A DNA stretch of 64,000 nt from a bacterium (GCA_030648255.1 JAUSHZ010000007.1:24404-88403); one strand, 5' to 3'. Shown: positions 2,869 through 27,088, counted from the first letter of the stretch. The notes: generated by a model not told the origin, from the letters alone. Made by a program: numbers and translations.

Positions 2869-3085
2869 GTTAGAAGCTGTGTGAATTTTTAAATTTAATG
2901 ATTTGAAAATTCATTACAGATTCTTACACCCCGTTAAGTGCGAGCGATTAGCAAGCTACTTAACTGGGGTTTGTTTGTATTTCTATCCACACCCCAGTGA
3001 AGTAGAATTTGAGTACAAATTCACTTCACGGGGTAAATTCCGCTTGCCAATCGCGCTTCGCCTGCTGGCTCGCACTCTTGGAGCG
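2869..3085 (-). repeat. Intercistronic structured element, copy 4 (E1 / M-A / S1)
   Basis: infA stop to rpmJ ATG. S1 arm aaattccgcttgccaatcgcgcttcgcctgctggctcgcactcttggagcgtcat + tta stop. Confidence 0.9.
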
Positions 3086-3304
3086 TCATTTAAGTCTATA
3101 AACTATTCTGCCTCTTTTATCATCAATAGAGGCCATTTCAACCAACACCTTATCGCCCAACAAAATTTTTATGCGATTAATTCTAAGCTTCCCGGCCAAA
3201 TGCGCCAAAACCTCGTTTCCATTTTCCAATTGAATTTTAAATAAAAGACTAGGCAAAGCCTCTACAACTTGGCCTCTTTCTCTTATTGTATTAATTTGTT
3301 TCAT
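3086..3304 (-). CDS. infA: Translation initiation factor IF-1
   Basis: 72 aa S1-like OB fold; GQVVEALPSLLFKIQLENGNEVLAHLAGKLR..ILLGDKVLVEMASID. Confidence 0.93.
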   Translation of the reverse strand: MKQINTIRERGQVVEALPSLLFKIQLENGNEVLAHLAGKLRINRIKILLGDKVLVEMASIDDKRGRIVYRLK

Positions 3305-3320
3305 CTCGTTACGATTGTCT

Positions 3321-3349
3321 AAAATAGCAAATTATTCAAAAAAGGTCAA
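3321..3349 (-). promoter_or_regulatory. Sigma-70-type promoter for infA-rpmJ-rpsM-rpsK-rpsD-rpoA
   Basis: Minus sense TTGACC - 17 nt - TATTTT, preceded by GGGG; about 15 nt upstream of infA. Confidence 0.5.
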
Positions 3350-3358
3350 CCCCTTTGG

Positions 3359-4738: not shown

Positions 4739-4866
4739 GTTAGAAATTCTTAATTGAGTGGCGAATTTATGAGCCGTGAAATTTAGAAGTTTTTAGTCCT
4801 CCGTAAATTCAAACTTCGCCTACTGACTCGTTTTCATTAACGGATTACTTATTCTACCACAAAAAT
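4739..4866 (-). repeat. Intercistronic structured element, copy 5 (short form: E3 / no M / S3-like)
   Basis: alaS stop to the ATG of the 459 aa gene. Ends AATTTCTAAC-ATG. E3 stem ttcttaatt/aatttagaa and S stem agtcctccgt/acggattact are present, but the middle domain is missing. Confidence 0.8.
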
Positions 4867-10937: not shown

Positions 10938-12221
10938 CTACAAGTTTTCGTAGTCCCTCATTTCCATTTGGGCTTTTACTTGCCTCCAAATATCCAAAAC
11001 CACAGAAACCACAATCAATATGGCAGTTCCTCCAATTAAAAATTGAAAAGCCACCACCCCTGTTATCCCCTGAATAATTGAAGGCATTACCGCAATTAAG
11101 CTTAAAGATAAAGCGCCAATAAAAAGTGTGCGGTATAAAATCTTTTGCAAAAACTTGGCAGTTGATTCCCCCGGCCTAATGCCTGGCACAAAGCCACCCA
11201 TTTTTTGCAAGTTAGTGGCAATTGATTTTGGGTCAAAGGTAACGGCTGTGTAGAAAAAAGTAAACAGAAAAACCAAAACAAAAAATAGAGATCCGTTCAC
11301 CCAAACATTTGATAAAAATAATGAAACTGCCTTGGCGGTATTGGCAATAAAAGCGTTTCCTCCAACAGTTAAAAAATTAGCAATCATTGTAGGGAAAAGT
11401 AAAATGCTTAAAGCAAAAATAATAGGAATCACGCCAGCCGGGTTTAAATTAATTGGCAAATAAGTGGACACACCTCCATACATTTTATTGCCCCGCACTC
11501 TCTTGGCATAGTTAACTGGAATATTTCTTTTCGCTTCAGTTATTAAGACAACTCCAGCAATAATTACCAAAGCAATGATAAAAAATGCAATATATGGAAG
11601 CGCTTTTGAAGAGTCCCAACTTAAAGCAATTTGTCTGATTTGCGAAGGCGTATCAGCCACAATGCCAGCAAATATCAAAATTGAAACACCATTACCAACA
11701 CCCTTTTCAGTAATAAGTTCGCCAAGCCACATTAAAAATAACGCCCCCCCAGTAATTGTGATAATAGAGGTAATCATTTGCCACGCTGGCAAAACAGCAA
11801 TGGCTCCCTGTTTCTGAAATAGCATTAACATTGCGTAGGCCTGTAATACTGCTAAAGGCACTGTTAAAATTCTGCCATATTTATTAAACCTGGCTCTGCC
11901 TGCTTCTCCTTCTTCTTTATACATTTTTTCCAAAGCTGGAAAAATCATTGTTAAAAGCTGAATAATAATGGTTGAAGTGATATACGGGCCCAAGCCAAGC
12001 ATAACAATTGATAAATTAGAAAAAGCCCCCCCGACGAAAACATTTAAAAGCCCCAAAAGCTCGTTTTGGCTAAAAAATCTTTTTAAATTTTCTAAGTCAA
12101 TCCCTGGAATGGGAATGTTAGCGGCCAATCGTGAAACAGCCAACAAAGCCAAAACAAATAGAATTTTATTTCTTAATTGTTTGTCTTTAAATATTAATAA
12201 TAGTTTTTGAAACCACTCCAT
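10938..12221 (-). CDS. secY: Preprotein translocase SecY
   Basis: 427 aa with 10 predicted TM segments and typical SecY blocks (GPYITSTIIIQLL, GGALFLMWLGELITEKG). Confidence 0.95.
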   Translation of the reverse strand: MEWFQKLLLIFKDKQLRNKILFVLALLAVSRLAANIPIPGIDLENLKRFFSQNELLGLLNVFVGGAFSNLSIVMLGLGPYITSTIIIQLLTMIFPALEKMYKEEGEAGRARFNKYGRILTVPLAVLQAYAMLMLFQKQGAIAVLPAWQMITSIITITGGALFLMWLGELITEKGVGNGVSILIFAGIVADTPSQIRQIALSWDSSKALPYIAFFIIALVIIAGVVLITEAKRNIPVNYAKRVRGNKMYGGVSTYLPINLNPAGVIPIIFALSILLFPTMIANFLTVGGNAFIANTAKAVSLFLSNVWVNGSLFFVLVFLFTFFYTAVTFDPKSIATNLQKMGGFVPGIRPGESTAKFLQKILYRTLFIGALSLSLIAVMPSIIQGITGVVAFQFLIGGTAILIVVSVVLDIWRQVKAQMEMRDYENL

Positions 12222-12409
12222 GTTAGTAATTCTTAATTGAACGGCGAATTTATGAGCTGTGAAATTTAGAATTTCTTACACCCCGTGGAGTAGAAATTTG
12301 CTCTGCAAATTTCTATTTTAAATTTTTTACTAAAAATTTAAAATTACTCCACAGGGTAAATTCCGCTTGCCAATCGCGCTTCGATTACTCAGCACTCTTG
12401 GAGCGTCAT
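12222..12409 (-). repeat. Intercistronic structured element, copy 6 (E3 / M-B / S1 variant)
   Basis: rplO stop to secY ATG. Ends ATTACTAAC-ATG. Closing stem caccccgtggagtag/ttactccacagggta. Confidence 0.9.
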
Positions 12410-12841
12410 TTACTTTACTGTTCCTCCTGCTTTTTCTATTTTAACTTGAGCAGCTTTTGAAACCAAGCAATCCTCAATAGTAAGTGATTTAGTAAGTTCG
12501 CCATTTCCTAAAATTTTTACCAATGGAACTTTGCCTATAATTTTTCTAATTAATTTTTTATCAACTAAAACTTCCGGGGTAATTTTGTCTCCTTTTTCAA
12601 AATTCTTTTCTAAAACATTAAGATTTATAGAGGCTGTTTCTTCTCCTCTTAATTCCTGCCTGTATCCTCTTATTTTTGGATATCTTTTAATAATCTCTCT
12701 CATAAAGGGTTGCATTTTTCTCCCAGCCCTTGATTTTTGGCCTTTGCAACCCTTCCCACAGTAAGTTCCCTTCTTGCCTCCTCTGCCAATTCTTTTTCTA
12801 TCTTTTGTCTTATTATTTGGTTGTATTTCGTGAATTTGCAT
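12410..12841 (-). CDS. rplO: 50S ribosomal protein L15
   Basis: 143 aa; KRIGRGGKKGTYCGKGCKGQKSRAG block. Confidence 0.93.
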   Translation of the reverse strand: MQIHEIQPNNKTKDRKRIGRGGKKGTYCGKGCKGQKSRAGRKMQPFMREIIKRYPKIRGYRQELRGEETASINLNVLEKNFEKGDKITPEVLVDKKLIRKIIGKVPLVKILGNGELTKSLTIEDCLVSKAAQVKIEKAGGTVK

Positions 12842-13007
12842 GTTAGTAATTCTTAATTGAACTGCGAACGATTAGTGAGCTGTGAAATTTAGAAGTACTT
12901 ACACCCTGTGGAGTAGAAATTTGCTCTGCAAATTTCTGTTTTAAATTTTTAGTAAAAAATTTAAAACTACTCCACGGGGTAAATTCCGCCTTCCACTCAA
13001 ACTTCGG
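12842..13007 (-). repeat. Intercistronic structured element, copy 7 (E3 / M-B / S2; S2 continues into the rpsE 3' end to about 13040)
   Basis: rpsE stop to rplO ATG. S2 homology (..cttcggctaatcgcctcgttttcgtggggcgtcattta) extends 33 nt into the rpsE coding sequence. Confidence 0.9.
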
Positions 13008-13526
13008 CTAATCGCCTCGTTTTCGTGGGGCGTCATTTAACTGTTGTAAGGCCGCTACTGTTGCCCGGGCGATATTTAATTTATTTCTTGATCTTGACAA
13101 TAACTTTGATGATATATTCCTAATTCCAGCTAAACTGCAAATAACTCTTACCTGGCCGCCAGCCACCAACCCCCTACCTTTTGCCTGAGGCCTTAACAAA
13201 ACCCTTGCTGGGCCATACTTTGCTGTAACCTCATGGGGAATTGTTTCCTCAAACATTGGAACAGAAATTAAATTCTTCTTGGCCAACCGAGTTGATTTTT
13301 CAACAGCAATTGCCACATCAGGCCCCTTGGCCACACCTAATCCAATTTTTCCCTTTTTATTGCCAACCACCACAACTGCCCTAAACCTCATTTGCTTTCC
13401 TCCCTTTGTTACTCTTGTAACTCTGGCTAAATCTAAAACCACCGAGTCGAACTCATCTTTCGGTTTTGCTGGAAATTGACCTCTTCTTTCTCTATTAAAT
13501 TTTCCTTGTTGTTGCTGTTGTTCCAT
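13008..13526 (-). CDS. rpsE: 30S ribosomal protein S5
   Basis: 172 aa; VTRVTKGGKQMRFRAVVVVGN..GLGVAKG and S5 C-terminal domain. The last ~10 codons ([10 protein letters not shown]) are encoded by element sequence. Confidence 0.93.
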   Translation of the reverse strand: MEQQQQQGKFNRERRGQFPAKPKDEFDSVVLDLARVTRVTKGGKQMRFRAVVVVGNKKGKIGLGVAKGPDVAIAVEKSTRLAKKNLISVPMFEETIPHEVTAKYGPARVLLRPQAKGRGLVAGGQVRVICSLAGIRNISSKLLSRSRNKLNIARATVAALQQLNDAPRKRGD

Positions 13527-13720
13527 GTTAGTAATTCTTAATTGAACGGCGAACGATTAGTGAGCTGTGAAGTTTAGAAGTACTTACACCCTGTGGAGTA
13601 GAAATTTGCTCTGCAAATTTCTGTTTTAAATTTTTTACTAAAAATTTAAAACTACTCCACGGGGTAAATTCCGCTTGCCAATCGTGCCTCACCTGCTGGC
13701 TCGCACTCTTGGAGCGTCAT
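13527..13720 (-). repeat. Intercistronic structured element, copy 8 (E3 / M-B / S1)
   Basis: rplR stop to rpsE ATG; same modules as copies 6/7, with S1 arm ending ggagcgtcat+tta. Confidence 0.9.
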
Positions 13721-14065
13721 TTAAAATTGTAGCCCACCTTCTCTCGCTCCTTCAGCCAACGCTTTTATTCTACCATGATATTTAAAGCCTCCTCTATCAA
13801 AAACAACTTTTTTAATCTTTTTTTCTATTGCTAATTTAGCAATTTCCTTACCAACATTAAAAGCCTTTTCTAATTTTTTCAGTTTTTTCTCTTTTGAATC
13901 GTTTGCTGAAATAATAGTTTTGCCTTTTGTGTCGTCAATTATTTGAGCATAGATATGCTGGTTTGATTTAAATACGCAAAGCCGAGGCGCGGTTGGTGTG
14001 CCAATGACTTTTGCCCTGATTCGGCTGTGTCTTCTTGTTCTTTTTTGTTGTTTTGTCTGTTGCAT
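13721..14065 (-). CDS. rplR: 50S ribosomal protein L18
   Basis: 114 aa; [42 protein letters not shown]. Confidence 0.93.
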
Positions 14066-14258
14066 GTTAGTAGTCGTTAATGAATGAGTGGCGATTAGCC
14101 ACGAGTGAATTTACGAATTCTTACACCCTGTGGAGTAGAAATTTGCTCTGCAAATTTCTGTTTCAAATTTTTAGCAAAAAATTTGAAACTACACCACGGG
14201 GTAAGTCCTCCGTAAGCTCTGGCTTCGGCTAATCGCCTTGCCATCGCTAACGGATTAC
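14066..14258 (-). repeat. Intercistronic structured element, copy 9 (E4 / M-B / S3)
   Basis: rplF stop to rplR ATG. E4 apex ggcgattagcc (14090-14100) is the exact reverse complement of S3 apex ggctaatcgcc (14227-14237). Confidence 0.9.
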
Positions 14259-14819
14259 TTATTTTCCAGCTTTCTTGCCCTCTTTCTTGCGGACAATTTC
14301 ACCAAAATATCTAACGCCCTTGCCTTTGTATGGCTCTGGCTTTCTTAAAGCTCTTATTTTTGCTGCAAACTGGCCAACCTGTTGCTTGTCAAAACCAAAA
14401 ATATTTATAAATTGTTTTTCTATTTTTATAGACAAACCCCCTGGAATCTCCATAAAAATAGGGTGAGAAAAACCCAAGTCCAATCTTATTTTCGATTCTC
14501 CCTCCATAGCAGCCTTGTATCCAACTCCCCTAAGCTCTAATTTCTTTTCAAATCCAACTGAGACGCCATGAACATGGTTCAATAATAAAGCAGTGGTTAA
14601 CCCCCAGAGAGCAGGAATTTCTTTGCTCTCTTTTTCCTGTCTGCCGACAGGCAGGGCTGGCTTTACAACTAAAATATTACCTTGTTGTTCCACAACAATA
14701 CCAACAGGAATTTCCTGTTTTATCTCTCCCTTAGGCCCTTTAAATAAAACATTATCTTTTTCAAGAATAACTGTTACGCCTTGGGGTATTTCTATTGGTT
14801 TTTTTCCTATTCTTGACAT
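14259..14819 (-). CDS. rplF: 50S ribosomal protein L6
   Basis: MSRIGKKPIEIPQGVTV.. The MKTHTISN prefix in the ORF track is repeat sequence; start at CTAAC-ATG (14817-14819). Confidence 0.93.
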   Translation of the reverse strand: MSRIGKKPIEIPQGVTVILEKDNVLFKGPKGEIKQEIPVGIVVEQQGNILVVKPALPVGRQEKESKEIPALWGLTTALLLNHVHGVSVGFEKKLELRGVGYKAAMEGESKIRLDLGFSHPIFMEIPGGLSIKIEKQFINIFGFDKQQVGQFAAKIRALRKPEPYKGKGVRYFGEIVRKKEGKKAGK

Positions 14820-15021
14820 GTTAGAAATTGTGTGAGTTTTCAAGCTATAATCTTTTTTATGGCTTGAAAACTCATTACAAGTTCTTACACCCTGTGGAGT
14901 AGAAATTTGCTCCGCAAATTTCTGTTTTAAATTTTTTACTAAAAATTTAAAACTACTCCACGGGGTAAGGTATCCGTAAGCTCGGGCTTCGCCTGCTGGC
15001 TCGCCCTCGCTAACGGCTACC
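14820..15021 (-). repeat. Intercistronic structured element, copy 10 (E2 / M-B / S3)
   Basis: rpsH stop to rplF ATG. E2 hairpin gagttttcaagc..gcttgaaaactc. S3 stem aaggtatccgt/acggctacctt carries compensatory changes relative to copy 9. Confidence 0.9.
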
Positions 15022-15411
15022 TTACCACACTTCCACCATTAATTCACCTCCGACTTTATCTTTTCTGGCTTGCTTATCTGTTAATAAACCATTGGTGGTT
15101 GAAACAATAGATAAGCCATAGCCACTTCTTACCTTTGAAATCTCGTCTGCTTTTTTATAAATTCTTTGCCCTGGCTTTGAAATCCTTTTAAACCCAGAGA
15201 CGGCTGGCATCTTTTCATTATATTTTAACTGTATTTTTATAATTTGAAACGGCTTTTTCCCTTTTTTCTTGCAATCCAAAATAAGCCCCTCTGCTTTTAA
15301 AATTTCAGCAATTGAGTATCTTAGTTTTGAAAAAGGAACATCGGTTGTTTTATGGAAAACAACTTGAGCGTTCCTTATTCTATTAAACATGTCTGTTATT
15401 GGATCGGTCAT
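15022..15411 (-). CDS. rpsH: 30S ribosomal protein S8
   Basis: MTDPITDMFNRIRNAQ.. is a typical S8. Start after CTTCTAAT-ATG (15409-15411). Confidence 0.93.
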   Translation of the reverse strand: MTDPITDMFNRIRNAQVVFHKTTDVPFSKLRYSIAEILKAEGLILDCKKKGKKPFQIIKIQLKYNEKMPAVSGFKRISKPGQRIYKKADEISKVRSGYGLSIVSTTNGLLTDKQARKDKVGGELMVEVW

Positions 15412-15612
15412 ATTAGAAGTTGTGTGAGTTTTCAAGCTATAATTTTTTTTATGGCTTGAAAACTCATTACAAATTCTTATACCCCGTGGAGTAGAAATTT
15501 GCTCTGCAAATTTCTGTTTTAAATTTTTTACTAAAAATTTAAAACTACTCCACAGGGTAAGTCCTCCGTAAGCTCTGGCTCGGCTGTTGCCTCGCCATAG
15601 CTAACGGATTAC
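15412..15612 (-). repeat. Intercistronic structured element, copy 11 (E2 / M-B / S3)
   Basis: rpsN stop to rpsH ATG. Only copy ending CTAAT-ATG instead of CTAAC-ATG. Confidence 0.9.
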
Positions 15613-15798
15613 TTACCAAGACGACTTCTTAATCCCGGGTATTTCTCCTTTACTTGCCATTTCCCTAAAACAAATTCTGCACAAACCAAAGTCCCTTATA
15701 AATCCCCTGTACCTTCCGCACTTAAAACATCGCCTCACTATTCTTGAAGAAAACTTTGGTTTTCGGTTTGATTGATTAATTAATGATTTTTTTGCCAT
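15613..15798 (-). CDS. rpsN: 30S ribosomal protein S14 (short zinc type)
   Basis: 61 aa; CFKCGR..CRICFR zinc ribbon and C-terminal KKSSW. Confidence 0.93.
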
Positions 15799-15974
15799 GT
15801 TAGTGATTCTTAATTGAACGGCGAGCGATTAGCGAGCTGTGAAATTTAGAATGACTTACACCCCGTTAAGTGCGAGCGATTAGCGAGCTACTTAACTGGG
15901 GTTTCGTTGTATTCTTACCCCACCCCAGTGAAGTAGAATTTGAGTACAAATTCACTTCACGGGGTAAGGCTCTG
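15799..15974 (-). repeat. Intercistronic structured element, copy 12 (E3 / M-A / S5)
   Basis: rplE stop to rpsN ATG. Ends ATCACTAAC-ATG. The motif cgagcgattagcgagc occurs in both the E3 and M-A loops. Confidence 0.9.
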
Positions 15975-16577
15975 CTACCGCTCAACCTTCGCCTTCGGCT
16001 CGGCTTCACGGGCAGAAGCCTTAAATGGAAACCCCAGCAATCTTAATAATGCAGCGCCTTCTTCCTTTGTTTTGGCTGTTGTTGAAATTGTTACTTCTAA
16101 TCCAAAAATGCCTTTCTCTTTTTCAACTTTCAATTCAGGAAATGGAACATACTCTTTAAATCCAACTGTAATATCTCCTTGGCTTGTCATAGATTTCTCT
16201 TCAACGCCCCTAAAGTCTCTAGACCTTGGCAAAACAACCCAAATCAACTTCTCTAAAAAATCATACATTCTTTTCTTTCTTAAGGTGCAGCTGGCTCCAA
16301 CCGCCATACCTTCTCTTAGCTTGAAAGCAGCAATTGATTTTTTTGCTTTATTTAGAGATGGTTTTTGCCCGGTAATAGCGGCTATTGATTGAGCAATATA
16401 TTCTTCCGCTTTTTCTCTCTCACTGGCGCTTTTTCCAATAACCATTTTGCCAAAACCGCAATTAACAACAATCTTCTTTATTTTTGGCACAGCCATAACA
16501 GAACTATACCCGAATTTCTTCGTCATTTCAGGAATAACTATTTTATTGTATTGCTCTTGTAATTTCATATTTTTCAT
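15975..16577 (-). CDS. rplE: 50S ribosomal protein L5
   Basis: MKNMKLQEQYNKIVIPEMTKKFGYSSVMAVPKIKKIVVNCG.. Start is ambiguous (16577 or 16568). The ORF-track N-terminal 19 aa lie over an upstream hairpin. Confidence 0.9.
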   Translation of the reverse strand: MKNMKLQEQYNKIVIPEMTKKFGYSSVMAVPKIKKIVVNCGFGKMVIGKSASEREKAEEYIAQSIAAITGQKPSLNKAKKSIAAFKLREGMAVGASCTLRKKRMYDFLEKLIWVVLPRSRDFRGVEEKSMTSQGDITVGFKEYVPFPELKVEKEKGIFGLEVTISTTAKTKEEGAALLRLLGFPFKASAREAEPKAKVER

Positions 16578-16586
16578 GAAGCTGTC

Positions 16587-16641
16587 GAAGCTGTTGAAAC
16601 CGAGCTTCTGGAAGCCCTTGAAGCTCGGTTTCAACAGCTTC
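16587..16641 (-). promoter_or_regulatory. 22-bp perfect hairpin just upstream of rplE
   Basis: gaagctgttgaaaccgagcttc - 11 nt - gaagctcggtttcaacagcttc, between the rplX stop (16656) and the rplE start. It replaces the modular element at this junction. Confidence 0.7.
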
Positions 16642-16655
16642 AGGCTCCATAGCTT

Positions 16656-16961
16656 TTAAATATCAGCTTTGCATTTCTTGCAAATTCTAACTTTATTTTC
16701 TCCTTCTACCTTATAGCCAATTCTTGTGGGTTTATTGCACTTAGGACATAAAGCCTGCGCTTTGGAGGCATTCATTGGAAAAGAAATTTCCACAATTTGC
16801 CCTTTTTCTCCTTGTTTTTTTGGCTTTTTATGCGTCTTTTTTATATTAACTCCTTCAACCAAAATCATTTCCTTAGATGGAAAGCTTTTTAAAACCTTGG
16901 CTTTCTTGCCTTTATCCTTGCCAGCGATTATTAAAACATTGTCTCCTTTTTTGATTCGCAT
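16656..16961 (-). CDS. rplX: 50S ribosomal protein L24
   Basis: MRIKKGDNVLIIAGKDKGKK (KOW) plus C-terminal CPKC..CKKC ribbon. MKTHTISN prefix is repeat sequence. Confidence 0.92.
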   Translation of the reverse strand: MRIKKGDNVLIIAGKDKGKKAKVLKSFPSKEMILVEGVNIKKTHKKPKKQGEKGQIVEISFPMNASKAQALCPKCNKPTRIGYKVEGENKVRICKKCKADI

Positions 16962-17177
16962 GTTAGAAATTGTGTGAGTTTTCAAGCTATAATCTTTTTT
17001 ATGGCTTGAAAACTCATTACAAGTTCTTACACCCTGTTAAGTGCGAGCGATGAGCGAGCTACTTAACTGGGGTTTGTTTATATTATTCTCATACCCCAGT
17101 GAAGTAGAATTTGATTACAAATTCACTTCACGGGGTTAAGCGATTGTAATGCTCGGCTATCGCCTCGCAGACAATCG
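16962..17177 (-). repeat. Intercistronic structured element, copy 13 (E2 / M-A / S4)
   Basis: rplN stop to rplX ATG. Combines the E2 hairpin of copies 10/11/15 with the M-A and S4 modules of copy 1. Confidence 0.9.
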
Positions 17178-17546
17178 CTAAACAACATCTTTAGCCATGG
17201 TTATTATGGCATCAAATCCTTTTTCTTTTAATTCTCGAGGAACCGGCCCTAAAATTCTATTTCCTTTAGGCTGTTTCTGATCATTTAAAATACAGCAAGC
17301 ATTGTCATCAAATCGCAAATAGGAACCGTCTTTTCTTCTAAACGGACTCTTTTGCCTTACAATAACGGCCTTAACAACCTGATGTTCCTTAACATCGCGC
17401 CTTGGCTCTGCTTTTTTAACCGCTGCAACAATTATGTCGCCAATTCTTGCATATTTCTTTCTTGTGCCTCCAGGCACCCCAAAACACTGAACTATCTTAG
17501 CTCCAGTATTATCTGCCACATTTAACATTGTTCTTAACTGAATCAT
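17178..17546 (-). CDS. rplN: 50S ribosomal protein L14
   Basis: 122 aa; MIQLRTMLNVADNTGAK.. Confidence 0.95.
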   Translation of the reverse strand: MIQLRTMLNVADNTGAKIVQCFGVPGGTRKKYARIGDIIVAAVKKAEPRRDVKEHQVVKAVIVRQKSPFRRKDGSYLRFDDNACCILNDQKQPKGNRILGPVPRELKEKGFDAIITMAKDVV

Positions 17547-17550
17547 GGGT

Positions 17551-17778
17551 TTATTTTTTTACTACTTTCCAACACTTATCTTTACTCAAAGGCCTTGACT
17601 CTTCTATTAAAACCTTGTCTCCAATTTCAAAAATATTGCCCGCTGTATCTGCCTTATACTTTTTCGAAGATGTGTATCGCTTTCTGTATTTTGGATGCAC
17701 CTTTATTGTTTCCACTTTCACCACAACAGTGTTTGTCATTTTATTGGAAACTATTTGTCCTTTTAATATCTTTTTCAT
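17551..17778 (-). CDS. rpsQ: 30S ribosomal protein S17
   Basis: 75 aa; GQIVSNKMTNTVVVKVE..HPKYRK.. Confidence 0.92.
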   Translation of the reverse strand: MKKILKGQIVSNKMTNTVVVKVETIKVHPKYRKRYTSSKKYKADTAGNIFEIGDKVLIEESRPLSKDKCWKVVKK

Positions 17779-17966
17779 TTTTTTATTAAAGTTAATATGC
17801 GAGCTATATTTCTTCTTGATGTTCTTATCTGTCTAATATCCTTTATTTTTCCAGCAGCCAAATCAAATCTAAAAACTCGAAGATTTTCTTGCTTTTCCCT
17901 CAATGATTTTTGCAAATCATCTTTGCTTAATTTTGAAAGCTCTTTTAGCGCTTCTTGTCTTTTCAT
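17775..17966 (-). CDS. rpmC: 50S ribosomal protein L29
   Basis: 63 aa; coiled L29 pattern (LRFDLAAGKIKDIRQIRTSRRNIARILT). 4-nt overlap with rpsQ. Confidence 0.9.
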   Translation of the reverse strand: MKRQEALKELSKLSKDDLQKSLREKQENLRVFRFDLAAGKIKDIRQIRTSRRNIARILTLIKK

Positions 17967-17967
17967 A

Positions 17968-18375
17968 CTATTTTTTTACAAATTTAACTTTAATTGGCAA
18001 TTTATCTGAGGCCTTGCCAAACGCCTCAACAGCAATCTTTTCATCCACTCCATCAATTTCAAATATCACTCTACCAGGTTTTATCGGAAAAACATAATGG
18101 TCAACAGCCCCCTTGCCTCCACCCATTCCAACTTCTCCGCCTTTTTGCGTAATTGGTTTTTGGGGGAATATCCTAATCCATAGCTTACCCTTTCTTTTCA
18201 TTGCTTTTGTAATAGCTTTTCTAGCTGATTCCATTTGGTTGGCTGTAATCCATTTTGTTCCCATTGATTTCAATCCAAAAGAACCATAGGAAACTTCTGT
18301 TCCTCTTGTATCATTTCCTTTGCTTGTGCCCTTATGCCATTTCCTATGTTTCATTTTTCTTGGTTGTGTCAACAT
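17968..18375 (-). CDS. rplP: 50S ribosomal protein L16
   Basis: MLTQPRKMKHRKWHKG.. MKIHTASN prefix is repeat sequence; start at CTAAC-ATG (18373-18375). Confidence 0.93.
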   Translation of the reverse strand: MLTQPRKMKHRKWHKGTSKGNDTRGTEVSYGSFGLKSMGTKWITANQMESARKAITKAMKRKGKLWIRIFPQKPITQKGGEVGMGGGKGAVDHYVFPIKPGRVIFEIDGVDEKIAVEAFGKASDKLPIKVKFVKK

Positions 18376-18566
18376 GTTAGAAGCTGTGTGAATTTTCAAA
18401 TTTAATGATTTGAAAATTCATTACAGATTCTTACACCCCGTGGAGTAGAAATTTGCTCTGCAAATTTCTGTTTTAAATTTTTAGTAAAAAATTTAAAACT
18501 ACTCCACAGGGTAAATTCCGCTTGCCAATCACGCTCGCCTGCTGGCTCGCGCTCTTGGAGCGTCAT
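18376..18566 (-). repeat. Intercistronic structured element, copy 14 (E1 / M-B / S1)
   Basis: rpsC stop to rplP ATG; E1 AT palindrome combined with the M-B three-way junction. Confidence 0.9.
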
Positions 18567-19226
18567 TTAATTAAAGCGTTCTCCCTTATACATCCAAACC
18601 TTAACGCCAATAACCCCATAAGTGCAGTGTGCCTCGCATGAGCCATATTCAACTATGGCTCTTATTGTTTGAAGCGGAAGTCGCCCATCTTTTAACCATT
18701 CTCTTCTGGAAATTTCAACTCCATTTAACCTACCTGATACCTCAACCTTCACGCCTTTTATTTCTTTTTGCTCAGCTGTTTTGCTTATTGCCATTTTCAA
18801 AACTCTTCTAAACGGCACTTGCTTTTCGATTTGGCCAGCCATCCATTGAGCTGTTAAGCTGGCTGAAAGCCATGGGTTTCTTATTTCAATAATTTCTATT
18901 TTAATGCTGTTTTTATCTGTTTTTATCTTCCCCTTTACTTTTGATATTGCTTTTTCAATTCCCATTTTCAAATCCTCAACTCCTTTGCCCCCCCTGCCGA
19001 TAATCAAAGCGGGTCTGGAAGTTTTAATAATAATTTTTAAGGCAGCGGATGTTCTCTCTATCTCTACTTCCTGAATAATACCCGCGGGTAGCTTCTTAGT
19101 GATAAACTGCCTAATTATAAAATCCTCCTCTAAGTAAACAGGAAAATTGTTCTTATAAAAGCCTCTTGAAAGCCAGTCTTTCATTTCTCTTATCTTAAAA
19201 GATTTTGGGTTGACTTTATGGCTCAT
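18567..19226 (-). CDS. rpsC: 30S ribosomal protein S3
   Basis: 219 aa; KH domain (IIGRGGKGVEDLK) and S3 C-terminal domain. Confidence 0.95.
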   Translation of the reverse strand: MSHKVNPKSFKIREMKDWLSRGFYKNNFPVYLEEDFIIRQFITKKLPAGIIQEVEIERTSAALKIIIKTSRPALIIGRGGKGVEDLKMGIEKAISKVKGKIKTDKNSIKIEIIEIRNPWLSASLTAQWMAGQIEKQVPFRRVLKMAISKTAEQKEIKGVKVEVSGRLNGVEISRREWLKDGRLPLQTIRAIVEYGSCEAHCTYGVIGVKVWMYKGERFN

Positions 19227-19576
19227 ACTTTTGATTTATCTTGTTTAAAAATATCTAAATTTAAAGTAATATTAGAAGTTTTCTTTTCTATTCTACAAGC
19301 CCTGCCCCTAGCTCTGGCCCTCCATCTTTTAAGGGTTCTGCCCTCATCAACTTTAATTAAGGAAATAAACAAATCTTTTTCTTCTAATTTAAAATTGTTT
19401 TTAGCGTTGGCCACTGCTGAATCCAAAAGCTTTTTTAAAGGCAAGGCTCCTTTTTTAATGCAAAATCCTAAAGATGCTTGGGCTTTCCCAGCAGATTTTC
19501 CTCTAACCATATCAGCCACCAAGCGAACTTTTCTGGGTGATATTCTTAAATTGTTTAATTTTGCTATAACTTGCAT
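19223..19576 (-). CDS. rplV: 50S ribosomal protein L22
   Basis: MQVIAKLNNLRISPRKVRLVADMVRGK.. The ORF-track N-terminal 18 aa are repeat sequence. Confidence 0.93.
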   Translation of the reverse strand: MQVIAKLNNLRISPRKVRLVADMVRGKSAGKAQASLGFCIKKGALPLKKLLDSAVANAKNNFKLEEKDLFISLIKVDEGRTLKRWRARARGRACRIEKKTSNITLNLDIFKQDKSKV

Positions 19577-19776
19577 GTTAGAAATTGTGTGAGTTTTCAA
19601 GCTATATTTCCTTATGGCTTGAAAACTCATTACAAGTTCTTACACCCCGTGGAGTAGAAATTTGCTCCGCAAATTTCTGTTTTAAATTTTTAGTAAAAAA
19701 TTTAAAACTACTCCACAGGGTAAATTCCGCTTGCCAATCGCGCTTCGCCTGCTGGCTCGCGCTCTTGGAGCGTCAT
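19577..19776 (-). repeat. Intercistronic structured element, copy 15 (E2 / M-B / S1)
   Basis: rpsS stop to rplV ATG. Confidence 0.9.
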
Positions 19777-20103
19777 TTATTTCTTTACTGGTACTGGTGC
19801 TTTAGGTTGGGTTTGAGTTTGCACTTTTGATTCTTGCTCTCTTTGCATTTTTCCGCCATGCCTGCCAAACTTCGTGGTTGGGGAAAATTCTCCTAATTTA
19901 TGGCCAACCATATCTTCTGAAACATAAACGGGAATATGCTCTTTTCCATTATGGACTCCAAAAGTAAAGCCAACCATTTCTGGTGTAACAGAACACTCGC
20001 GAGACCATGTCTTAATAACTTTTTTCTCGCCAGCTTTCTGGTTGATGACTTTTTTTATTAATCTTTCGTCCACAAAAGGACCCTTTTTTAGTGATCGTGG
20101 CAT
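19777..20103 (-). CDS. rpsS: 30S ribosomal protein S19
   Basis: 108 aa; [22 protein letters not shown], with a C-terminal extension. Confidence 0.94.
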
Positions 20104-20107
20104 AAAA

Positions 20108-20902
20108 TTATTTGTGCTTCTTCTGAATTCGTCTTTTTAAAATTAACCTACTTGTCCAGCTTTTCCTTCTGGTTTTAACTCCCAAGGCTGGTTTTCCCCA
20201 AGGAGTTCTTGGGTGGCGGCCAATTGGCTGTTTGTTCTTTCCACCTCCATGAGGGTGGTCGCAAGCATTCATAGCTGAACCTCTCACAGTTGGACGGTGG
20301 CCCATTTTTCTGGCAGTGCCTGCTTTCCCAATTTGCTTAAATCTGTGTTCCGGATTTGAAACCTGACCAATTGAGGCAAAACATTCGTTTAAAACTTTCC
20401 TTACTTCAGTGGAAGGCATTTTTAACTGGCTATACTTTCCCTCGTGGCCCATAATAACAATGCCACTTCCAGCGGATCTTGCCATTTTACCCCCAGCCAT
20501 TGGAAATAGTTCAATATTATGGACAATTGAACCAACGGGAATATTTTTTAAACGCATTCTGTTGCCGGCCTTAATCGGAGTTAAGTCCGAACAAACTAGT
20601 TCATCGCCAACGGTTAATCCATCTGGAGCAATAATATATTTCTGTTCGCCATCATTATACTTTAATAAAGCAATATGGCAAGTTCTATTTGGGTCATATT
20701 CAAGAGATTGGACAACCGAAGATTCATTAATTCTTGATTGGCCAAAATCAACCATTCGATACATCCTTTTTACCCCGCCTCCTTTATGGTGTACAGTAAT
20801 ACGGCCGGTATTATTTTTACCGCCTGTTTTTTTCAACACCCTTAATAAACTCTTCTGGGGCTTGTTCTTTGATAAAATTGTTTTTTTTCTGTGTAAAGCC
20901 AT
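20108..20902 (-). CDS. rplB: 50S ribosomal protein L2
   Basis: 264 aa; [18 protein letters not shown] and [11 protein letters not shown] motifs. Confidence 0.96.
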
Positions 20903-20904
20903 AA

Positions 20905-21348
20905 TTATCGCGGAATTATTTCAATCTCTTGCCCCTTCTTAATAGTAACAATTGCTTTTTTATATCCTTTTTTCCAGCCGGTTGTTCTGCCCAATCTTTT
21001 TTTCTTCCTGTCAACATTAATTATTCTTACTTTTTCAACGACAACACCATAAACCTCTTGGACTGCTTTTTTTACTTCTGGCTTGGTGGCTGTTTTAAAA
21101 GCTTGAAAAATATATTGGTTTTTTTCCATTAAAAAAGTGGCTTTTTCAGTAATTTGAGGCCTGCTTAAAACGCTTGGAGCTAATTTTATATCCACTTTTT
21201 TTGCTTTGCCCGCCGTAGTTTTAATAGGGGCGGACTTTTCCTCTACAACTTTCCTTTCCTTCTTGTCCGCCGAAGCTTTAGCGGAGGTGGACTTTTTCTT
21301 ATCTTTAAAGCTTTCCTCTTTTTTTGTTTTTTTAAAAAATAATGACAT
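20905..21348 (-). CDS. rplW: 50S ribosomal protein L23 with Lys-rich N-terminal extension
   Basis: 147 aa; the C-terminal ~95 aa match L23 (VLSRPQITEKA..YIFQAF..VEKVRIIN). The first ~50 aa are a low-complexity K/E/A tail. Confidence 0.9.
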   Translation of the reverse strand: MSLFFKKTKKEESFKDKKKSTSAKASADKKERKVVEEKSAPIKTTAGKAKKVDIKLAPSVLSRPQITEKATFLMEKNQYIFQAFKTATKPEVKKAVQEVYGVVVEKVRIINVDRKKKRLGRTTGWKKGYKKAIVTIKKGQEIEIIPR

Positions 21349-21349
21349 A

Positions 21350-21988
21350 CTACTTCTTTTCTTTTATAAATAAATCCTGCATAACCTTTATACTTTCCTT
21401 GGGCATAATTAAATATTTGTTGTTCAAAACATCTAAAGCATTCAGGTCTTTTACTTGCATAATTTTTGTTTTGTCTATATTTCTAGAAGCCAAAATAAAG
21501 TCATTGTCCATTTCAGGTAAAGCAATTAAAGTTGTCTTGCCAAGAGTTGGCATTTTTTCTAAAATACCAGCTGCTAATTTTGTTTTAGCAGTTTTTATTT
21601 TTAAATCCTCTATTAAAATTACAAAATTATTCTTAGCTTTTTCAGTCAAAGCCATAAATAGAGCTGCTCTTTTTATTTTCTTTGGCACAATTTTTTTATA
21701 AACTTTTTCGTTTGTGGGGCCAAAAGTAACACCTCCGCCCTTCCAAATAGGAGACCTGGTGGAGCCAGCTCTGGCTCTGCCTGTTCCTTTTTGACGCCAT
21801 GGTTTTTTGCCTCCCCCAGAAACATCGCCTCTGTCTTTTGTGTGGGCGTTGCCTTGCCTTCTGTTTGCCATCTGGGAAACAGCCACTTGATGCAACAAAT
21901 CCTTAGATAATTTCACATCAAAAATCTCCTTCGGCAATTCCGCCTGGCCTGTTTTCTCACCCATTTGATTGTATATATCGATTTTCAT
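21350..21988 (-). CDS. rplD: 50S ribosomal protein L4
   Basis: 212 aa; RQGNAHTKDRGDVSGGGKKPWRQKGTGRAR. Confidence 0.95.
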   Translation of the reverse strand: MKIDIYNQMGEKTGQAELPKEIFDVKLSKDLLHQVAVSQMANRRQGNAHTKDRGDVSGGGKKPWRQKGTGRARAGSTRSPIWKGGGVTFGPTNEKVYKKIVPKKIKRAALFMALTEKAKNNFVILIEDLKIKTAKTKLAAGILEKMPTLGKTTLIALPEMDNDFILASRNIDKTKIMQVKDLNALDVLNNKYLIMPKESIKVMQDLFIKEKK

Positions 21989-22014
21989 GTTGGCTATTTT
22001 CTATCCACTGCTTA

Positions 22015-22641
22015 CTATTTACTCTTTTTCTTATTTACTATTGAACTTGTAATCTCTACAAGCGTTCCTCGCCTGCCAGGGATGGCGCCTTTTACTGCAA
22101 TCAAATTATTTTCCAAATCAATTTTAACAATTTTTAAATTTCTCACCGAAATTCGCACAAATCCCATATGGCCTGGCATTCTCTTGCCCGGGAAAACTCT
22201 ACCCGGGTCAGTAGCACCAACCGAACCAATTGTTCTTACTTCATGCTTTGTGCCATGGGTTGTGTGATGCCCCCTAAAATTATATCTCTTAACACCTCCT
22301 TGAAACCCTTTGCCCTTGCTAATACCTGAAATTTTAACTTTATCTCCTTCTTGAAAAACAGAGGCATTAATCTCCTGCCCTAATTCATAATTCTTAATTC
22401 CTGATTCCTGAGGCCTGAACTCTTTTAAATATCTATACTCTTTGCCTTTCTCGGTTTTCTTAATTTTTCTAGCTTTTTTTTCAAAACCAATCTGAACCGA
22501 TTCATAGCCATCTTTGCTTTCCTTGGTCTTATTTTGTAAAACAACACAAGGCCCAGCTGTAATCAAAGTTACTGGGACTGCATCTCCCTTTTCATTAAAT
22601 ATTTGAGTCATCTCTAATTTTTTTCCAAGAATAAATGACAT
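22015..22641 (-). CDS. rplC: 50S ribosomal protein L3
   Basis: 208 aa; GKGFQGGVKRYNFRG..HGTKHEVRTIGS. Confidence 0.95.
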   Translation of the reverse strand: MSFILGKKLEMTQIFNEKGDAVPVTLITAGPCVVLQNKTKESKDGYESVQIGFEKKARKIKKTEKGKEYRYLKEFRPQESGIKNYELGQEINASVFQEGDKVKISGISKGKGFQGGVKRYNFRGHHTTHGTKHEVRTIGSVGATDPGRVFPGKRMPGHMGFVRISVRNLKIVKIDLENNLIAVKGAIPGRRGTLVEITSSIVNKKKSK

Positions 22642-22941
22642 GTTAGAAGCTGTGTGAATTTTTAAATTTAATGATTTAAAAATTCATTACAGATTCTTAC
22701 ACCCTGTGAAGTAAAATTTGAGTACAAATTTTAATTTTAAATTTTTTACTAAAAATTTAAAATTACTTCACGGGGTTAATAATCCGTAAGCTCAAGCTTC
22801 GCCTGCTGGCTCGCTCTCGCTAACGAATTATTAAAAACACGAGGCATTAACTCCCCGCATTTTTGTTAAAAACTCAAGGGTTAAATTCTTCCCACTTTCA
22901 AGGGTTAAACTAATTAAGTTTTACCTTGAACTCTATATTAA
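22642..22941 (-). repeat. Intercistronic structured element, copy 16 (E1 / hybrid M / S3-like, about 22642-22838) plus a unique ~100 nt spacer
   Basis: rpsJ stop to rplC ATG. Closing stem caccctgtgaagtaa/ttacttcacggggtt and S stem ttaataatccgt/acgaattattaa. The spacer 22839-22941 holds two copies of caagggttaaa. Confidence 0.85.
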
Positions 22942-23280
22942 TTAAATCGTTTTAATTTCAATTTCCACGCCCGCTGGCAAGGTTAAATCACGAAGCGACT
23001 CAATAAATCTTTGGTTTGGATTTGTTACTTCTATCAATCGCTTGTGCACTCTCATTTCAAATTGCTCTCTAGCATCTTTGTGAACAAATGTTGACCTGTT
23101 TACTGTGTATTTTTTTATTTCTGTTGGCAAAGGCACAGGCCCAACCATTTCCACGCCCGACCTGCCCGAAATTTCTGTAATCTGATGGCACGAAGCGTCA
23201 ACCACCTTGCTATCATATGATTTTAGCTTAATTCTTAGCTGAACCGCCTGCTCCACTGGTTTTTCTTTTACTGTTGCCAT
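22942..23280 (-). CDS. rpsJ: 30S ribosomal protein S10
   Basis: 112 aa; RIKLKSYDSKVVDAS..LPTEIKKYTVNRS. Confidence 0.95.
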   Translation of the reverse strand: MATVKEKPVEQAVQLRIKLKSYDSKVVDASCHQITEISGRSGVEMVGPVPLPTEIKKYTVNRSTFVHKDAREQFEMRVHKRLIEVTNPNQRFIESLRDLTLPAGVEIEIKTI

Positions 23281-24479
23281 TATTTTATTATCTTTGAAAC
23301 CACCCCAGCGCCAACTGTTCGCCCGCCCTCTCTAATAGCAAATTTCTGTTTCTCTTCTAAGGCAATTGGGGTAATCAATTTAACTGTCACACTGATCGTA
23401 TCTCCCGGCATAACCATTTCAACTCCCGCTGGCAAAATAACATCTCCTGTTACATCGCAAGTTCTAATAAAGAACTGTGGCTTGTATCCAGAGAAAAACG
23501 GAGTGTGCCTTCCGCCTTCATCTTTAGTTAAGGCGTAAATTTCTGCTTCAAATTCAGAATGAGGAGTCACAGAGCCTGGCTTAGCAAGCACTTGCCCCCT
23601 TTCAATATCTTCCTTTTTAAACCCTCTCAACAAAATACCCACGTTATCGCCAGCTCTGCCTTCATCAAGAATTTTGTTAAACATTTCCACGCTTGTGGCA
23701 ATAGTTTTTTGAGTGGCTCTTAAGCCAACAATTTCCACCTCCTCTCCGCCCTTCACAATACCTCTTTCTACTCTGCCAGTAGCCACTGTGCCTCTGCCTT
23801 CAATAGAAAAAACATCTTCCACAGCCATTAAAAATGGCTTGTCAGTAGCTCTTACGGGTTCGGGAAAGAAAGAATCAATCTTTTCAAATAATTCAGCAAT
23901 TGGCTTCATATCCTCATCATCCGCTGATTCGGCCGCCACTGCTTTTAATGCTGAGCCTCTAATAATTGGGGTTGTGTCTCCCGGGAAATCGTATTTCTTT
24001 AACAACTCTCGCAATTCTGATTCCACTAATTCAATCATTTCTGGGTCATCCACCTGATCGCATTTATTTAAAAAGATAAGCAAATTTGGCAAACCCACTT
24101 GATTGGCAAGCAAAACGTGCTCTCTGGTTTGAGGCATAGGGCCTTCGGCCGCAGACACAACCAAAATACCTCCGTCCATTTGAGCGGCGCCAGTAATCAT
24201 ATTTTTGATATAATCAGCGTGGCCCGGGCAGTCAATCAAAGCGTAGTGCCTGTTAGCTGTTTCAAATTCGTTGTGTGAAATGTTAATCGTTACGCCTCTG
24301 GCTTTTTCTTCTGGAGCTGAATCAATTTCATCAATTGATTTATTTGAAGATTTAAAACCTTTTAAGTGGGCGTACTTCAACATAGCTGCTGTTAAAGTAG
24401 TTTTGCCGTGGTCAACATGGCCAATAGTGCCAATATTTAAGTGCGGCTTAGTTCTTTCGAATTTTTGTTTCTCTGCCAT
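23280..24479 (-). CDS. tuf: Elongation factor Tu
   Basis: 399 aa; [14 protein letters not shown] and NKCD GTPase motifs. Confidence 0.97.
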
Positions 24480-24535
24480 AGATTTAAATTATTTTATTAT
24501 GTTTATTATATTGATTAAAAAAATAAAGTCAATGC

Positions 24536-24805
24536 TTAAAACGGTAAATCATCTAAAGTTAGATCAGCTGTGGGCTTTTCTGACGCTGAAATTTTTTCTA
24601 ATTGCGATTCTGGTTTTGCTTCTAACTCTATTTCTTCAACTGTAATGGGCGTTTTTGATTCTAATAAAGCCGAAGTTAAATCTAAATTTTTTCTTTTTGT
24701 TTTTTCGTACTCGTTAAAAGACATAACCACCATAATATCGTCATTGTCAATTATGAGAACCTTTCCCTCTTCAGAAACAATTTGTTTTATTTTAAATAAA
24801 TCCAT
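24536..24805 (-). CDS. Small acidic hypothetical protein between fusA and tuf
   Basis: 89 aa. The N-terminal beta-rich part (KVLIIDNDDIMVVMSFNEYEK) is reminiscent of Phd/YefM-like antitoxins. The C-terminus ..DLTLDDLPF resembles the SSB acidic tip (DDDIPF). Confidence 0.5.
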   Translation of the reverse strand: MDLFKIKQIVSEEGKVLIIDNDDIMVVMSFNEYEKTKRKNLDLTSALLESKTPITVEEIELEAKPESQLEKISASEKPTADLTLDDLPF

Positions 24806-24898
24806 AATCTTAGAAACCAGAATTCCGAAACCAGAATTCCGAACTTTAATAACTAGAAATTTTTCGGATTTCGGATTTCGTGCTTCGGATTTTTATTG
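24806..24898 (-). repeat. Short tandem-repeat hairpin region between fusA and the 89 aa ORF
   Basis: Plus strand: gaaaccagaattcc x2 (24813-24840), then tcggattt x3-4 (24865-24892); the two repeat sets are mutually complementary. Confidence 0.7.
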
Positions 24899-27001: not shown

Positions 27002-27016
27002 AAGTTAATCGGTTTA

Positions 27017-27079: not shown

Positions 27080-27088
27080 AACAATATT

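Follow-up and report, generated by a model that had tools for sequence, protein, structure and literature searches.

Three-hairpin repeats at stop-to-start junctions of ribosomal-protein operons in a Patescibacteria genome: probable miniature derivatives of a mobile GIY-YIG nuclease cassette

Bacterial chromosomes carry several kinds of short, structured, multi-copy repeats in transcribed intergenic regions. The Correia/NEMIS, ERIC, BOX and RUP repeats are of this kind, some being modular (BOX A/B/C) or derived by internal deletion from a longer coding element. Bacterial interspersed mosaic elements (BIMEs) of enterobacteria are mosaics of palindromic units in operon intergenic regions, in which the repetitive extragenic palindromic (REP) unit of ~35 bp has a GTAG head and an associated Y1 transposase (REP-associated tyrosine transposase; RAYT), and mycobacterial interspersed repetitive units (MIRUs) are intercistronic repeats whose small open reading frames (ORFs) overlap the flanking stop and start codons. 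In composites of group I introns and homing endonuclease genes, the loops of a conserved RNA structure accommodate the nuclease ORF. Free-standing GIY-YIG homing endonuclease genes, for example the seg genes of phage T4, are known from 'intronless homing' (reviewed in PMC2988022), and the rRNA genes of candidate phyla radiation (CPR) bacteria contain GIY-YIG-encoding, non-intron insertion sequences together with short insertions that lack an ORF (PMC11270868). The present analysis concerns a three-hairpin repeat that fills junctions between genes, chiefly of ribosomal proteins, in 64,000 nucleotides of bacterial DNA (GCA_030648255.1 JAUSHZ010000007.1:24404-88403; the whole of this stretch, from whose first letter positions are counted, is the window), and that probably descends from a mobile cassette encoding a GIY-YIG nuclease. 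A full-text literature search found no published description of the element, the nearest being the rRNA insertions (PMC11270868).

The window comes from a Patescibacteria, Parcubacteria-like genome, whose closest species-level relative is the metagenome-assembled genome (MAG) L001, followed by Staskawiczbacteria, Nealsonbacteria and Paceibacterota MAGs (three-digit L numbers designate genomes, contigs or loci; shorter ones are ribosomal proteins). The str, S10, spc and alpha ribosomal-protein operons occupy the minus strand at positions 1–31,000, in the order S12, S7, EF-G, EF-Tu, S10 ... L15, SecY, adk, map ... IF1, L36, S13, S11, S4, and L30 is absent from them. Genes in this genome mostly lack a Shine-Dalgarno sequence, and their usual junctions are overlaps or spacers of 0–4 nt. 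Seventeen copies of the element, ~110–265 nt long, each span the distance from the stop codon of one gene to the ATG of the next (Table 1); eight of these (copies 6–13) lie inside 12222–17177, the other nine at 1278–4866 and 18376–27814, and 12 of the 17 fall within the unbroken run of 21 junctions between EF-Tu and SecY. In mRNA order a copy consists of a stop-proximal hairpin (S), a middle domain (M) and a start-proximal hairpin (E). The motif CAT[G/A]TTAG occurs 17 times, in the 16 M-bearing copies and in copy 5, which lacks M, and always on the plus strand, so that all 17 copies lie on the minus strand and end ..YCUAAY directly 5′ of ATG. The pattern CTTACACCCYGTGG (≤3 mismatches) has 17 matches in the window against 3.4 expected, a number reached by 0 of 100 shuffles, and one match, at 27318, is due to chance. 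Copy 15 has a minimum free energy of −92 kcal/mol, compared with −41.5 ± 4.4 for shuffled sequences (z = −11.5); its pairing extends from the U of the UAA stop to the A of AUG without an unpaired base at the joints of S, M and E, and the three modules adjoin without a spare base in nearly all copies.

The preliminary description of this DNA had divided the modules into types and proposed that these assort independently. The 17 copies and their three modules are confirmed, and anchor-based extraction reproduced every type assignment, including the five types of S; module identity is 87–100% within a type and ~50–75% between types. The 17 copies show fourteen S-M-E combinations, the mutual information that modules share lies within the range of permutations (P = 0.18, 0.46, 0.93), and quartets with all four combinations number 2 for S/M, 4 for M/E and 9 for S/E, so the modules are real and their variants sort independently. 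E is 100% identical in copies 10/13, 1/16 and 3/14, which differ in S and M, and M is 100% identical in copies 2 and 7, which differ in S and E. As had been argued, decay of a single insertion could not make this mosaic, and exchange between copies can; recombination or gene conversion between copies is the process that these sequence comparisons support.

The claim that E comes in four unrelated types does not hold. All types share a covarying base helix (UGUAAGAA.. / ..UUCUAACA) whose last position is the A of AUG, and diverge at the apex alone; the four types are thus different tops on one base, and swapping is mostly of the apex on a common scaffold. Across metagenome copies, the hairpin begins with UGUAAGAAYUNNUAA and ends with (Y)AACN'N'AUUUCUAACA, the last A being that of the start codon. 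Among 43 distinct sequences of the 12-pair helix, 93.6% of cells are paired and 7 of the 12 pairs have changed on both sides, with a covariation score reached by 0 of 500 shuffles. In the window, the sole CUAAU copy, copy 11, compensates with GUAUAAG (a G-C pair becoming A-U). S also follows a common plan, with a base helix that is conserved and covaries across genomes: the stop UAA pairs with UUA before CCC, next come tandem G.A loops, and GAGCC-loop-GGCGAAG forms the apex. M consists of a closing stem and two hairpins of very variable sequence, and its interior is found in both orientations; the arms are terminal inverted repeats, ACCCYGU(UAAAU/GAAGUA) and the complement, and the fourth pair of the closing stem is U-A (49), C-G (22) or a recombinant C.A (25) or U.G (7). 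Two tandem units make up M type A, and other M or E hairpins carry M units in their tips, such nested and tandem insertion being a further source of mosaics.

The origin of M is indicated by longer relatives. Metagenome contigs scanned by pattern gave at least 120 loci, chiefly from groundwater and sediment, and the metagenome statistics given here are among the matches listed; 80 genome loci found through S8 served as empty-site controls, and 0 of these 80 contain the M 3′ arm motif. In ~15–19 metagenome loci the interior of M, ~300 nt, is an ORF of 85–89 aa (for example MFYYVYVLQSLKDGKFYTGYTENLKLRFEEHQKGRV..REKYFK..RLKSYLTGCKNL), which matches the Pfam family GIY-YIG (PF01541; E = 1.7e-15, 57.5 bits against a cutoff of 22.6, residues 3–72) and the UPF0213 proteins BH0048 and EF2693 solved in PDB entries 1zg2 and 1ywl (E = 2e-8 and 5e-6). 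It is related to 5496 protein clusters; the best 120 of these are mostly 84–92 aa long, and the few among them that carry a source name are Patescibacteria/Parcubacteria. GIY-YIG is the only gene found inside the element. The conserved motifs of the repeat are the 3′ end of this gene, AUUUAACAGGG UGU AAG AAY YUG UAA reading YLTG CKN(L/S) stop; its relic makes up the M closing motif and the head of E. In the full form the leader pairs with the ENLKL codons, the LRFE codons with the RLKS codons, and the 5′ arm with the YLTG codons. These arms covary, some double changes being synonymous (AGA/UCU to CGA/UCG; UUA to UUG with U to C), and one lineage has KDLQG in place of ENLKL together with a fully rewritten leader, the pairing being kept.

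When the full M of L107 (300 nt) is aligned to copies 17, 16 and 7, the ends are the same and the differences are clean internal deletions. The M of copy 16 is the gene minus its two loops, a clean two-deletion skeleton; type B is this skeleton diverged further, and type A is the skeleton followed by a second unit, which in L143 carries an intact gene. In the window the GIY-YIG domain, encoded in full-length relatives, survives only as remnants: tblastn located gene remnants in copy 17 alone (VKNLKLRFE at 27705–27731; REK*LKV*..LKSYFTGCKS at 27602–27679); the C-terminal relics that it detected (..TGCKN) are common to all copies. L107 and L139 contain pseudogenes interrupted by in-frame stops, and L110 has a copy with an internal deletion; a single contig (L088 and L139) has copies with the nuclease gene at both L23>L2 and L14>L24, which share lineage-specific residues. 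Because the stems consist of conserved domain codons, the direction of change is from gene to miniature. A nuclease cassette of divergent sequence was also seen at L201 2404–2826 (and in L202–L210; cluster P0034), at a single conserved site upstream of PrgI-like/TraC-like/VirB4-like genes in many groundwater samples; its E base differs in sequence (UGCUCAAAUUUGUAG .. GACAAAUUUGGCA) and is the same in architecture, so that the family is wider than the GUGUAAG/CUAAC subgroup.

Comparison with related genomes points to mobility. L001, whose S8 is 98% identical in amino acids and whose coding DNA is ~80–88% identical to and collinear with the window, has no M closing motif; its orthologous junctions are 0–60 nt, or hold unrelated sequence at S10>L3. 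Four more relatives at similar distance (L178, L146+L115, L175 and L179) carry copies at other junctions, and occupancy differs among the five related genomes. S17>L14, filled in L178 and L146, is a spacer of 4 nt in the window; among the window and the relatives compared, L175 alone has a copy at L23>L2; a copy at S10>L3 is common to the window and L175. Empty junction DNA is exemplified by TAAATTTATG; several 'empty' junctions retain E tails of 11–22 nt, as at S8>L6, where a 16-nt E3-like tail stands alone in L001, L115 and L178 and a complete E2 copy is present in the window. Cassettes come and go at stop/start junctions within related genomes, and because orthologous junctions are empty and occupancy differs, recent mobile spread and turnover underlie the pattern. 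The preliminary description had held that unrelated sequence at relatives' junctions would imply recent selfish spread only; both unrelated and empty junctions are found, and exchange between copies is not contradicted by them. Passage between divergent genomes is shown by L141, whose genes are 63–72% identical to those of the window and whose single element is 85–87% identical over ~200 nt and 95% over E2. Within genomes, copies homogenise and exchange segments: E1 copies in the window share AAAUCAUUAAAUUU and those in L175, L179 and L186 share AAAUUAUUAAAGUU, a substitution pattern that therefore represents concerted evolution. The family is mobile, with fast turnover and concerted evolution, and is not a fixed host RNA.

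Placement is exact. Of 164 M 3′-arm motifs in all sequences examined, 158 are followed by E and a tail ending 0–4 nt from ATG, with no gap in 151 of the 158; an upstream ORF on the same strand ends nearby in 97 of 117 copies, mostly at the foot of S, and runs into S in ~30. In the window the frame of ribosomal protein S5 runs ~10 codons into the S module of copy 7 (13008–13039; stop 13008–13010) and that of L5 ~17 codons into the S module of copy 12 (15975–16020; stop 15975–15977), the C-termini being ~10 and ~17 residues longer than in L001; S17 is likewise extended into S in L178 and L146. Copies precede 16 of ~30 translation-apparatus genes and 1 of ~45 other genes of the window (P = 2e-7), and in the metagenomes at least 26 of 97 distinct downstream proteins (≥27%) come from these operons, the others including LexA, PyrG, FtsZ, DnaK, NusA, RpoA and SSB; the preference of the cassettes is for highly conserved genes of translation and housekeeping. 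M occurs almost exclusively in the context TTAC..GTGTAAG, nested copies excepted; S-E pairs without M in other loci amount to three near-variants, and viral contigs gave no match to the element. In L086 (13690–14120) and L094 (10430–10860), the element and the start of S14 occur twice, 350 nt apart, through either repeat-mediated tandem duplication or an assembly artefact.

The reading preferred here, with a probability of about 0.7, is that the repeats are non-autonomous, ORF-less derivatives (one with a decayed ORF) of a mobile intergenic nuclease cassette of Patescibacteria. The full cassette, seen in other contigs, comprises the upstream stop codon, the S hairpin (UAA pairing with the UUA that precedes CCC), the M 5′ arm ACCCYGU.., a short leader, the stand-alone GIY-YIG (UPF0213-like) gene of 85–89 aa whose codons ..YLTG form the M 3′ arm, the CKN(L/S) codons and UAA stop forming the 5′ strand of the E base, a variable apical hairpin, ..UUUCUAAC, and the next ATG. 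Its transcript already forms the three-way junction, and loss of the two loops with the rest of the gene leaves a three-way junction of 65–85 nt, M type B or hybrid. The nuclease of an intact copy may start repair-mediated copying or conversion, leading to both spread and mosaic: breaks made by it in trans would begin the exchanges, as in homing with co-conversion of flanks, and gene conversion among copies, crossing over within M and in the conserved linkers, would produce the shuffled modules. Breakpoints would then be expected to cluster at UUACCC, inside M and at GGGUGUAAG. Nuclease-driven homing is inferred in this scheme, the mosaic flanks and concerted evolution being the only, indirect signs of it. 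The closed hairpin chain may be what makes an insertion between stop and start tolerable to the operon.

Free-standing homing endonuclease genes of the T4 seg type are the nearest known kind. They resemble the cassette in that a small nuclease gene lies between conserved genes, with presence/absence polymorphism at the same site (found here between the window and L001, L178, L146/L115 and L175), mosaic flanking markers as from co-conversion, and decay to pseudogenes and loss. T4 Seg proteins are longer and have a DNA-binding part, whereas the protein here is a catalytic domain only; the gene here also lies in a conserved stop-to-start scaffold of three hairpins, with many ORF-less miniatures at many non-allelic chromosomal junctions. 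Miniature inverted-repeat transposable elements (MITEs) and palindromic repeats are likewise short, structured, multi-copy and modular, with internal-deletion derivatives in transcribed intergenic regions, and both internal deletion with retention of the ends and terminal inverted repeats are found here. In contrast to MITEs, the parent is a GIY-YIG nuclease rather than a transposase, no TA or other target-site duplication is present, and the junction is filled exactly from stop to start, the 3′ stem taking in the start-codon A. BIMEs also combine different palindromic units as a mosaic between genes, but here the units derive from a single cassette that once bore a gene; the copies contain no GTAG-headed 35-bp unit, and no RAYT/Y1 transposase is encoded in the 20 scanned ORFs of the window, itself part of the genome.

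Group I intron composites are alike in housing a nuclease ORF in the loops of a fold that could render insertion harmless, but the element here lies outside coding sequence and has no splicing signature, and no ribozyme core was found in it. Searches of the elements with Rfam 15, which includes self-cleaving ribozymes, introns and ribosomal-protein leaders, gave no hit at gathering score and, at E ≤ 5, only sub-threshold matches to generic, miRNA-like hairpins; ARAGORN found no tRNA-like part in them. MIRUs share the exact intercistronic position in operons and raise the same question of translational coupling, but no frame is conserved through the miniatures here: a MIRU-like coupling ORF after the stop of S1 and S2 copies was considered and rejected, the frames from AUG ending variously (22 codons in copy 15, 54 aa in copy 14, 6 codons in copy 6). 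Integron attC sites have the consensus 5′-RYYYAAC..GTTRRRY-3′ and occur with an integrase and mobile cassettes; this candidate was rejected because the order in E is the opposite (GUAAGAA..UUCUAAC) and the flanking genes are syntenic ribosomal-protein genes, not cassettes. Resemblances to dif/Xer, group II (GUGYG..AY) and spliceosomal-like (GUAAG..CUAAC) sequences are superficial, GUAAG and CUAAC pairing together. The CPR rRNA insertions (PMC11270868) come from the same phylum and involve the same nuclease family, being likened here by description, but they lie inside rRNA genes rather than at stop/start junctions of protein operons. The new feature is a minimal cassette for a GIY-YIG nuclease, together with the stop-to-start RNA scaffold that co-evolved with it and its abundant miniatures; the kind is known, that of free-standing homing-endonuclease genes with MITE-like derivatives.

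Several observations weigh against descent from such a cassette, or against parts of the scheme. No target-site duplication is seen when filled and empty junctions are compared; the old spacer is replaced, not split, and entry into non-allelic junctions is unaccounted for. PF01541 is the sole domain of the 85–89 aa ORFs, with no DNA-binding or target-recognition domain, and sequence-specific homing by such a protein is not evident. The 64-kb window holds no intact GIY-YIG gene, so that mobilisation in trans is unproven in this genome. The independence test, with n = 17, has little power, and neighbouring copies tend to match in M type (9 of 16 adjacent pairs, P = 0.04). The metagenome pattern required CATGTTAG and the M 3′ arm, so that divergent relatives are under-sampled, and ~6–7 of its matches look like chance. 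As to the RNA, the antisense strand of the miniatures has a slight advantage in folding (the sense strand being the more stable in 39 of 103, P = 0.001, among copies that share ancestry), and 1×1 mismatches are A.C in 58 cases against 24 G.U, a comparison confounded by the same shared ancestry. Because neither wobble pairs nor stability show a sense-strand bias, selection on the RNA of the miniatures, as against inheritance of the parent's fold, is not demonstrated.

One extension of the cassette reading is offered by analogy and is rather doubtful. The three-hairpin chain may be an intergenic counterpart of a self-splicing intron, in which stop and start codons, paired into the feet of abutting helices, would hide an insertion of 200–400 nt, so that a terminating ribosome or a processing enzyme would be delivered to the next AUG; miniatures would persist because the scaffold still bridges the gap.

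Among the alternatives, the one that survives best, though it is considered unlikely, is that the S-M-E chain is a host-selected intercistronic RNA device that processes or stabilises cistrons or carries ribosomes from stop to start, the hairpin tops being interchangeable and the nuclease gene an occasional lodger. The exact fold from stop to start codon without an unpaired linker would suit such a device, as would conserved mismatches in the weak E base beside AUG, in a helix that covaries. The long-range helices around ~150 nt of coding sequence are held by synonymous double changes, which places the constraint at the level of RNA rather than DNA, and copies are enriched upstream of highly expressed genes. 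Since ribosomal-protein genes have few Shine-Dalgarno sequences and overlapping or 0–4 nt junctions, coupling matters here, and the elements contain no terminator-like sites on the sense strand. The evidence from relatives is harder to reconcile with this explanation: close relatives manage without the element at the same junctions, occupancy turns over faster than genes diverge, and between distant genomes the elements are more conserved than the essential genes that flank them. The M stems are made of conserved GIY-YIG codons, which argues that the gene came first, the miniatures lack a sense-strand G.U bias, and some insertions harm their neighbours by extending S5, L5 and S17. The preliminary description had offered recombination or gene conversion and selection on interchangeable hairpin cassettes as causes of the mosaic; mobile spread and turnover tell against a stable host element under selection, and exchange between copies stands, as an account that is incomplete on the shared scaffolds, mobility, nuclease origin and tandem or nested insertion. 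The sense strand of the element has no promoter-like site. Terminator-like sites do occur in the antisense direction: at 12000–20000 the elements give 27 hairpin-plus-T-run sites, on the antisense (plus) strand only, against 7.3 expected, and these may block antisense transcription.

A mosaic could also arise with no recombination if S, M and E were separate small palindromic mobile units landing side by side, as in BIME/REP clusters or nested MITEs, an explanation of distinctly lower probability than the last. Copies of M nested in M and in E, the tandem units of type A, and copy 5, with S and E and no M, are what it would lead one to expect; in relatives E stands beside other upstream hairpins (L146 EF-Tu>S10 and L2>S19; L178 S14>S8) or as a bare tail, and other hairpin repeats colonise junctions (16578–16655; the GC hairpin of L001; the AT-rich repeat of L175 and L178). 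M is hardly ever found away from its flanking motifs, however, nested copies apart, and in nearly every copy no spare base separates S, M and E. The M/E boundary of full-length copies lies inside one reading frame, which makes M and E one unit, and the recombinant states of one M base pair require exchange, not insertion. A classical transposase-driven family (MITEs derived from insertion sequences (IS), RAYT-moved REP/BIME, or IS200/IS605-type hairpins) is highly improbable: M is short, AT-rich and multi-copy, with terminal inverted arms after TTAC, and all window copies lie on one strand, but no target-site duplication accompanies the replaced spacer, neither transposase nor RAYT was found by Pfam in the 20 window ORFs scanned, the GIY-YIG nuclease is the sole gene ever found inside the element, and the ends (S and E) are too variable for a single transposase-binding site.

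Table 1. Copies of the three-hairpin element in the window, with junctions given in the direction of transcription
Copy	Position	Strand	Junction	S	M	E	Remarks
1	1278–1489	−	S11 to S4	S4	type A	E1	
2	1946–2136	−	S13 to S11	S3	type B	E4	M 100% identical to copy 7
3	2527–2751	−	L36 to S13	S2	type A	E1	
4	2869–3085	−	IF1 to L36	S1	type A	E1	IF1 stop is UGA of UAAAUGA
5	4739–4846	−	upstream of 459-aa ORF	S3	absent	E3	AAA in place of M
6	12222–12409	−	L15 stop to SecY start	S1 (12360–12409)	type B (12275–12359)	E3 (12222–12274)	
7	12842–13036	−	S5 to L15	S2	type B	E3	
8	13527–13720	−	L18 to S5	S1	type B	E3	
9	14066–14258	−	L6 to L18	S3	type B	E4	
10	14820–15021	−	S8 to L6	S3 (14969–15021)	type B (14884–14968)	E2 (14820–14883)	
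11	15412–15612	−	S14 to S8	S3	type B	E2	
12	15799–16020	−	L5 to S14	S5	type A (two units in tandem)	E3	
13	16962–17177	−	L14 to L24	S4	type A	E2	E 100% identical to copy 10
14	18376–18566	−	S3 to L16	S1	type B	E1	
15	19577–19776	−	S19 to L22	S1	type B	E2	fold z = −11.5
16	22642–22830	−	downstream of conserved S10 leader, upstream of L3	S3	hybrid	E1	orthologous copy in L175
17	27551–27814	−	S12 to S7	S2	hybrid, 156 nt	E4	decayed GIY-YIG remnant

Other structured sequences occupy junctions in the same operons. On the minus strand at 16578–16655, the L24>L5 junction, which is an overlap in L001, L178 and L146, is filled by a near-perfect palindrome of 78 nt (GAAGCUGUUGAAACCGAGCUUC ... GAAGCUCGGUUUCAACAGCUUC) with no S-M-E features. 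L001 has a GC-rich hairpin repeat of its own, CCCCACCCCUCxGCUUxCGGGCxGAGGAGUGGGG, at 3800–3850 and 11310–11360 (S10>L3 and L18>S5), and a near-identical AT-rich repeat of 90–108 nt (UAAAUUUUUAAUUUCCAAUUUUUAAUUUUAUAAAUAAAU...) stands at L24>L5 in L175 and at L15>SecY in L178. Between S10 and L3, at 22801–22941, the window shares with L001, L146 and L175 a conserved leader of ~150 nt that contains a terminator-like hairpin (GCGGGGAG..CCUCGUGUUUUU); this leader is possibly an S10/L4-type attenuator, and copy 16 is inserted downstream of it. Elsewhere in the window, a DUF3800-V RNA (Rfam; 41.9 bits against a gathering score of 37.4) at 48983–49080 on the plus strand adjoins an ORF at 49116–49784 on the minus strand, and at 33463–35141 a gene for an N6/N4 DNA methylase adjoins a DUF6996/DUF6997 gene, possibly as a restriction-modification or defence pair.

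What underlies the mosaic is more interesting than the mosaic itself. Patescibacteria genomes are tiny, yet 17 copies lie in the most essential operons of this one, and its close relative L001 carries none. The finding connects three subjects that are mostly considered apart, stand-alone UPF0213-type GIY-YIG proteins, of which there are thousands of clusters in the phylum, MITE-like repeats and the stem-loop insertions of CPR rRNA genes, and these nucleases gain a testable role as drivers of a homing-like element. The elements explain why spurious ORFs and C-terminally extended ribosomal proteins are annotated in these MAGs. They bear on calls of horizontal gene transfer and genomic islands around the ribosomal-protein genes of Patescibacteria and, since different species share the repeats, on assembly and binning. 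They provide a natural system in which to ask how tightly coupled operon translation that lacks Shine-Dalgarno sequences survives a large structured insert; if the suggested parallel with self-splicing introns is true, the hairpin chain would be a bacterial analogue of ribosome shunting, or of termination-reinitiation over a structured gap.

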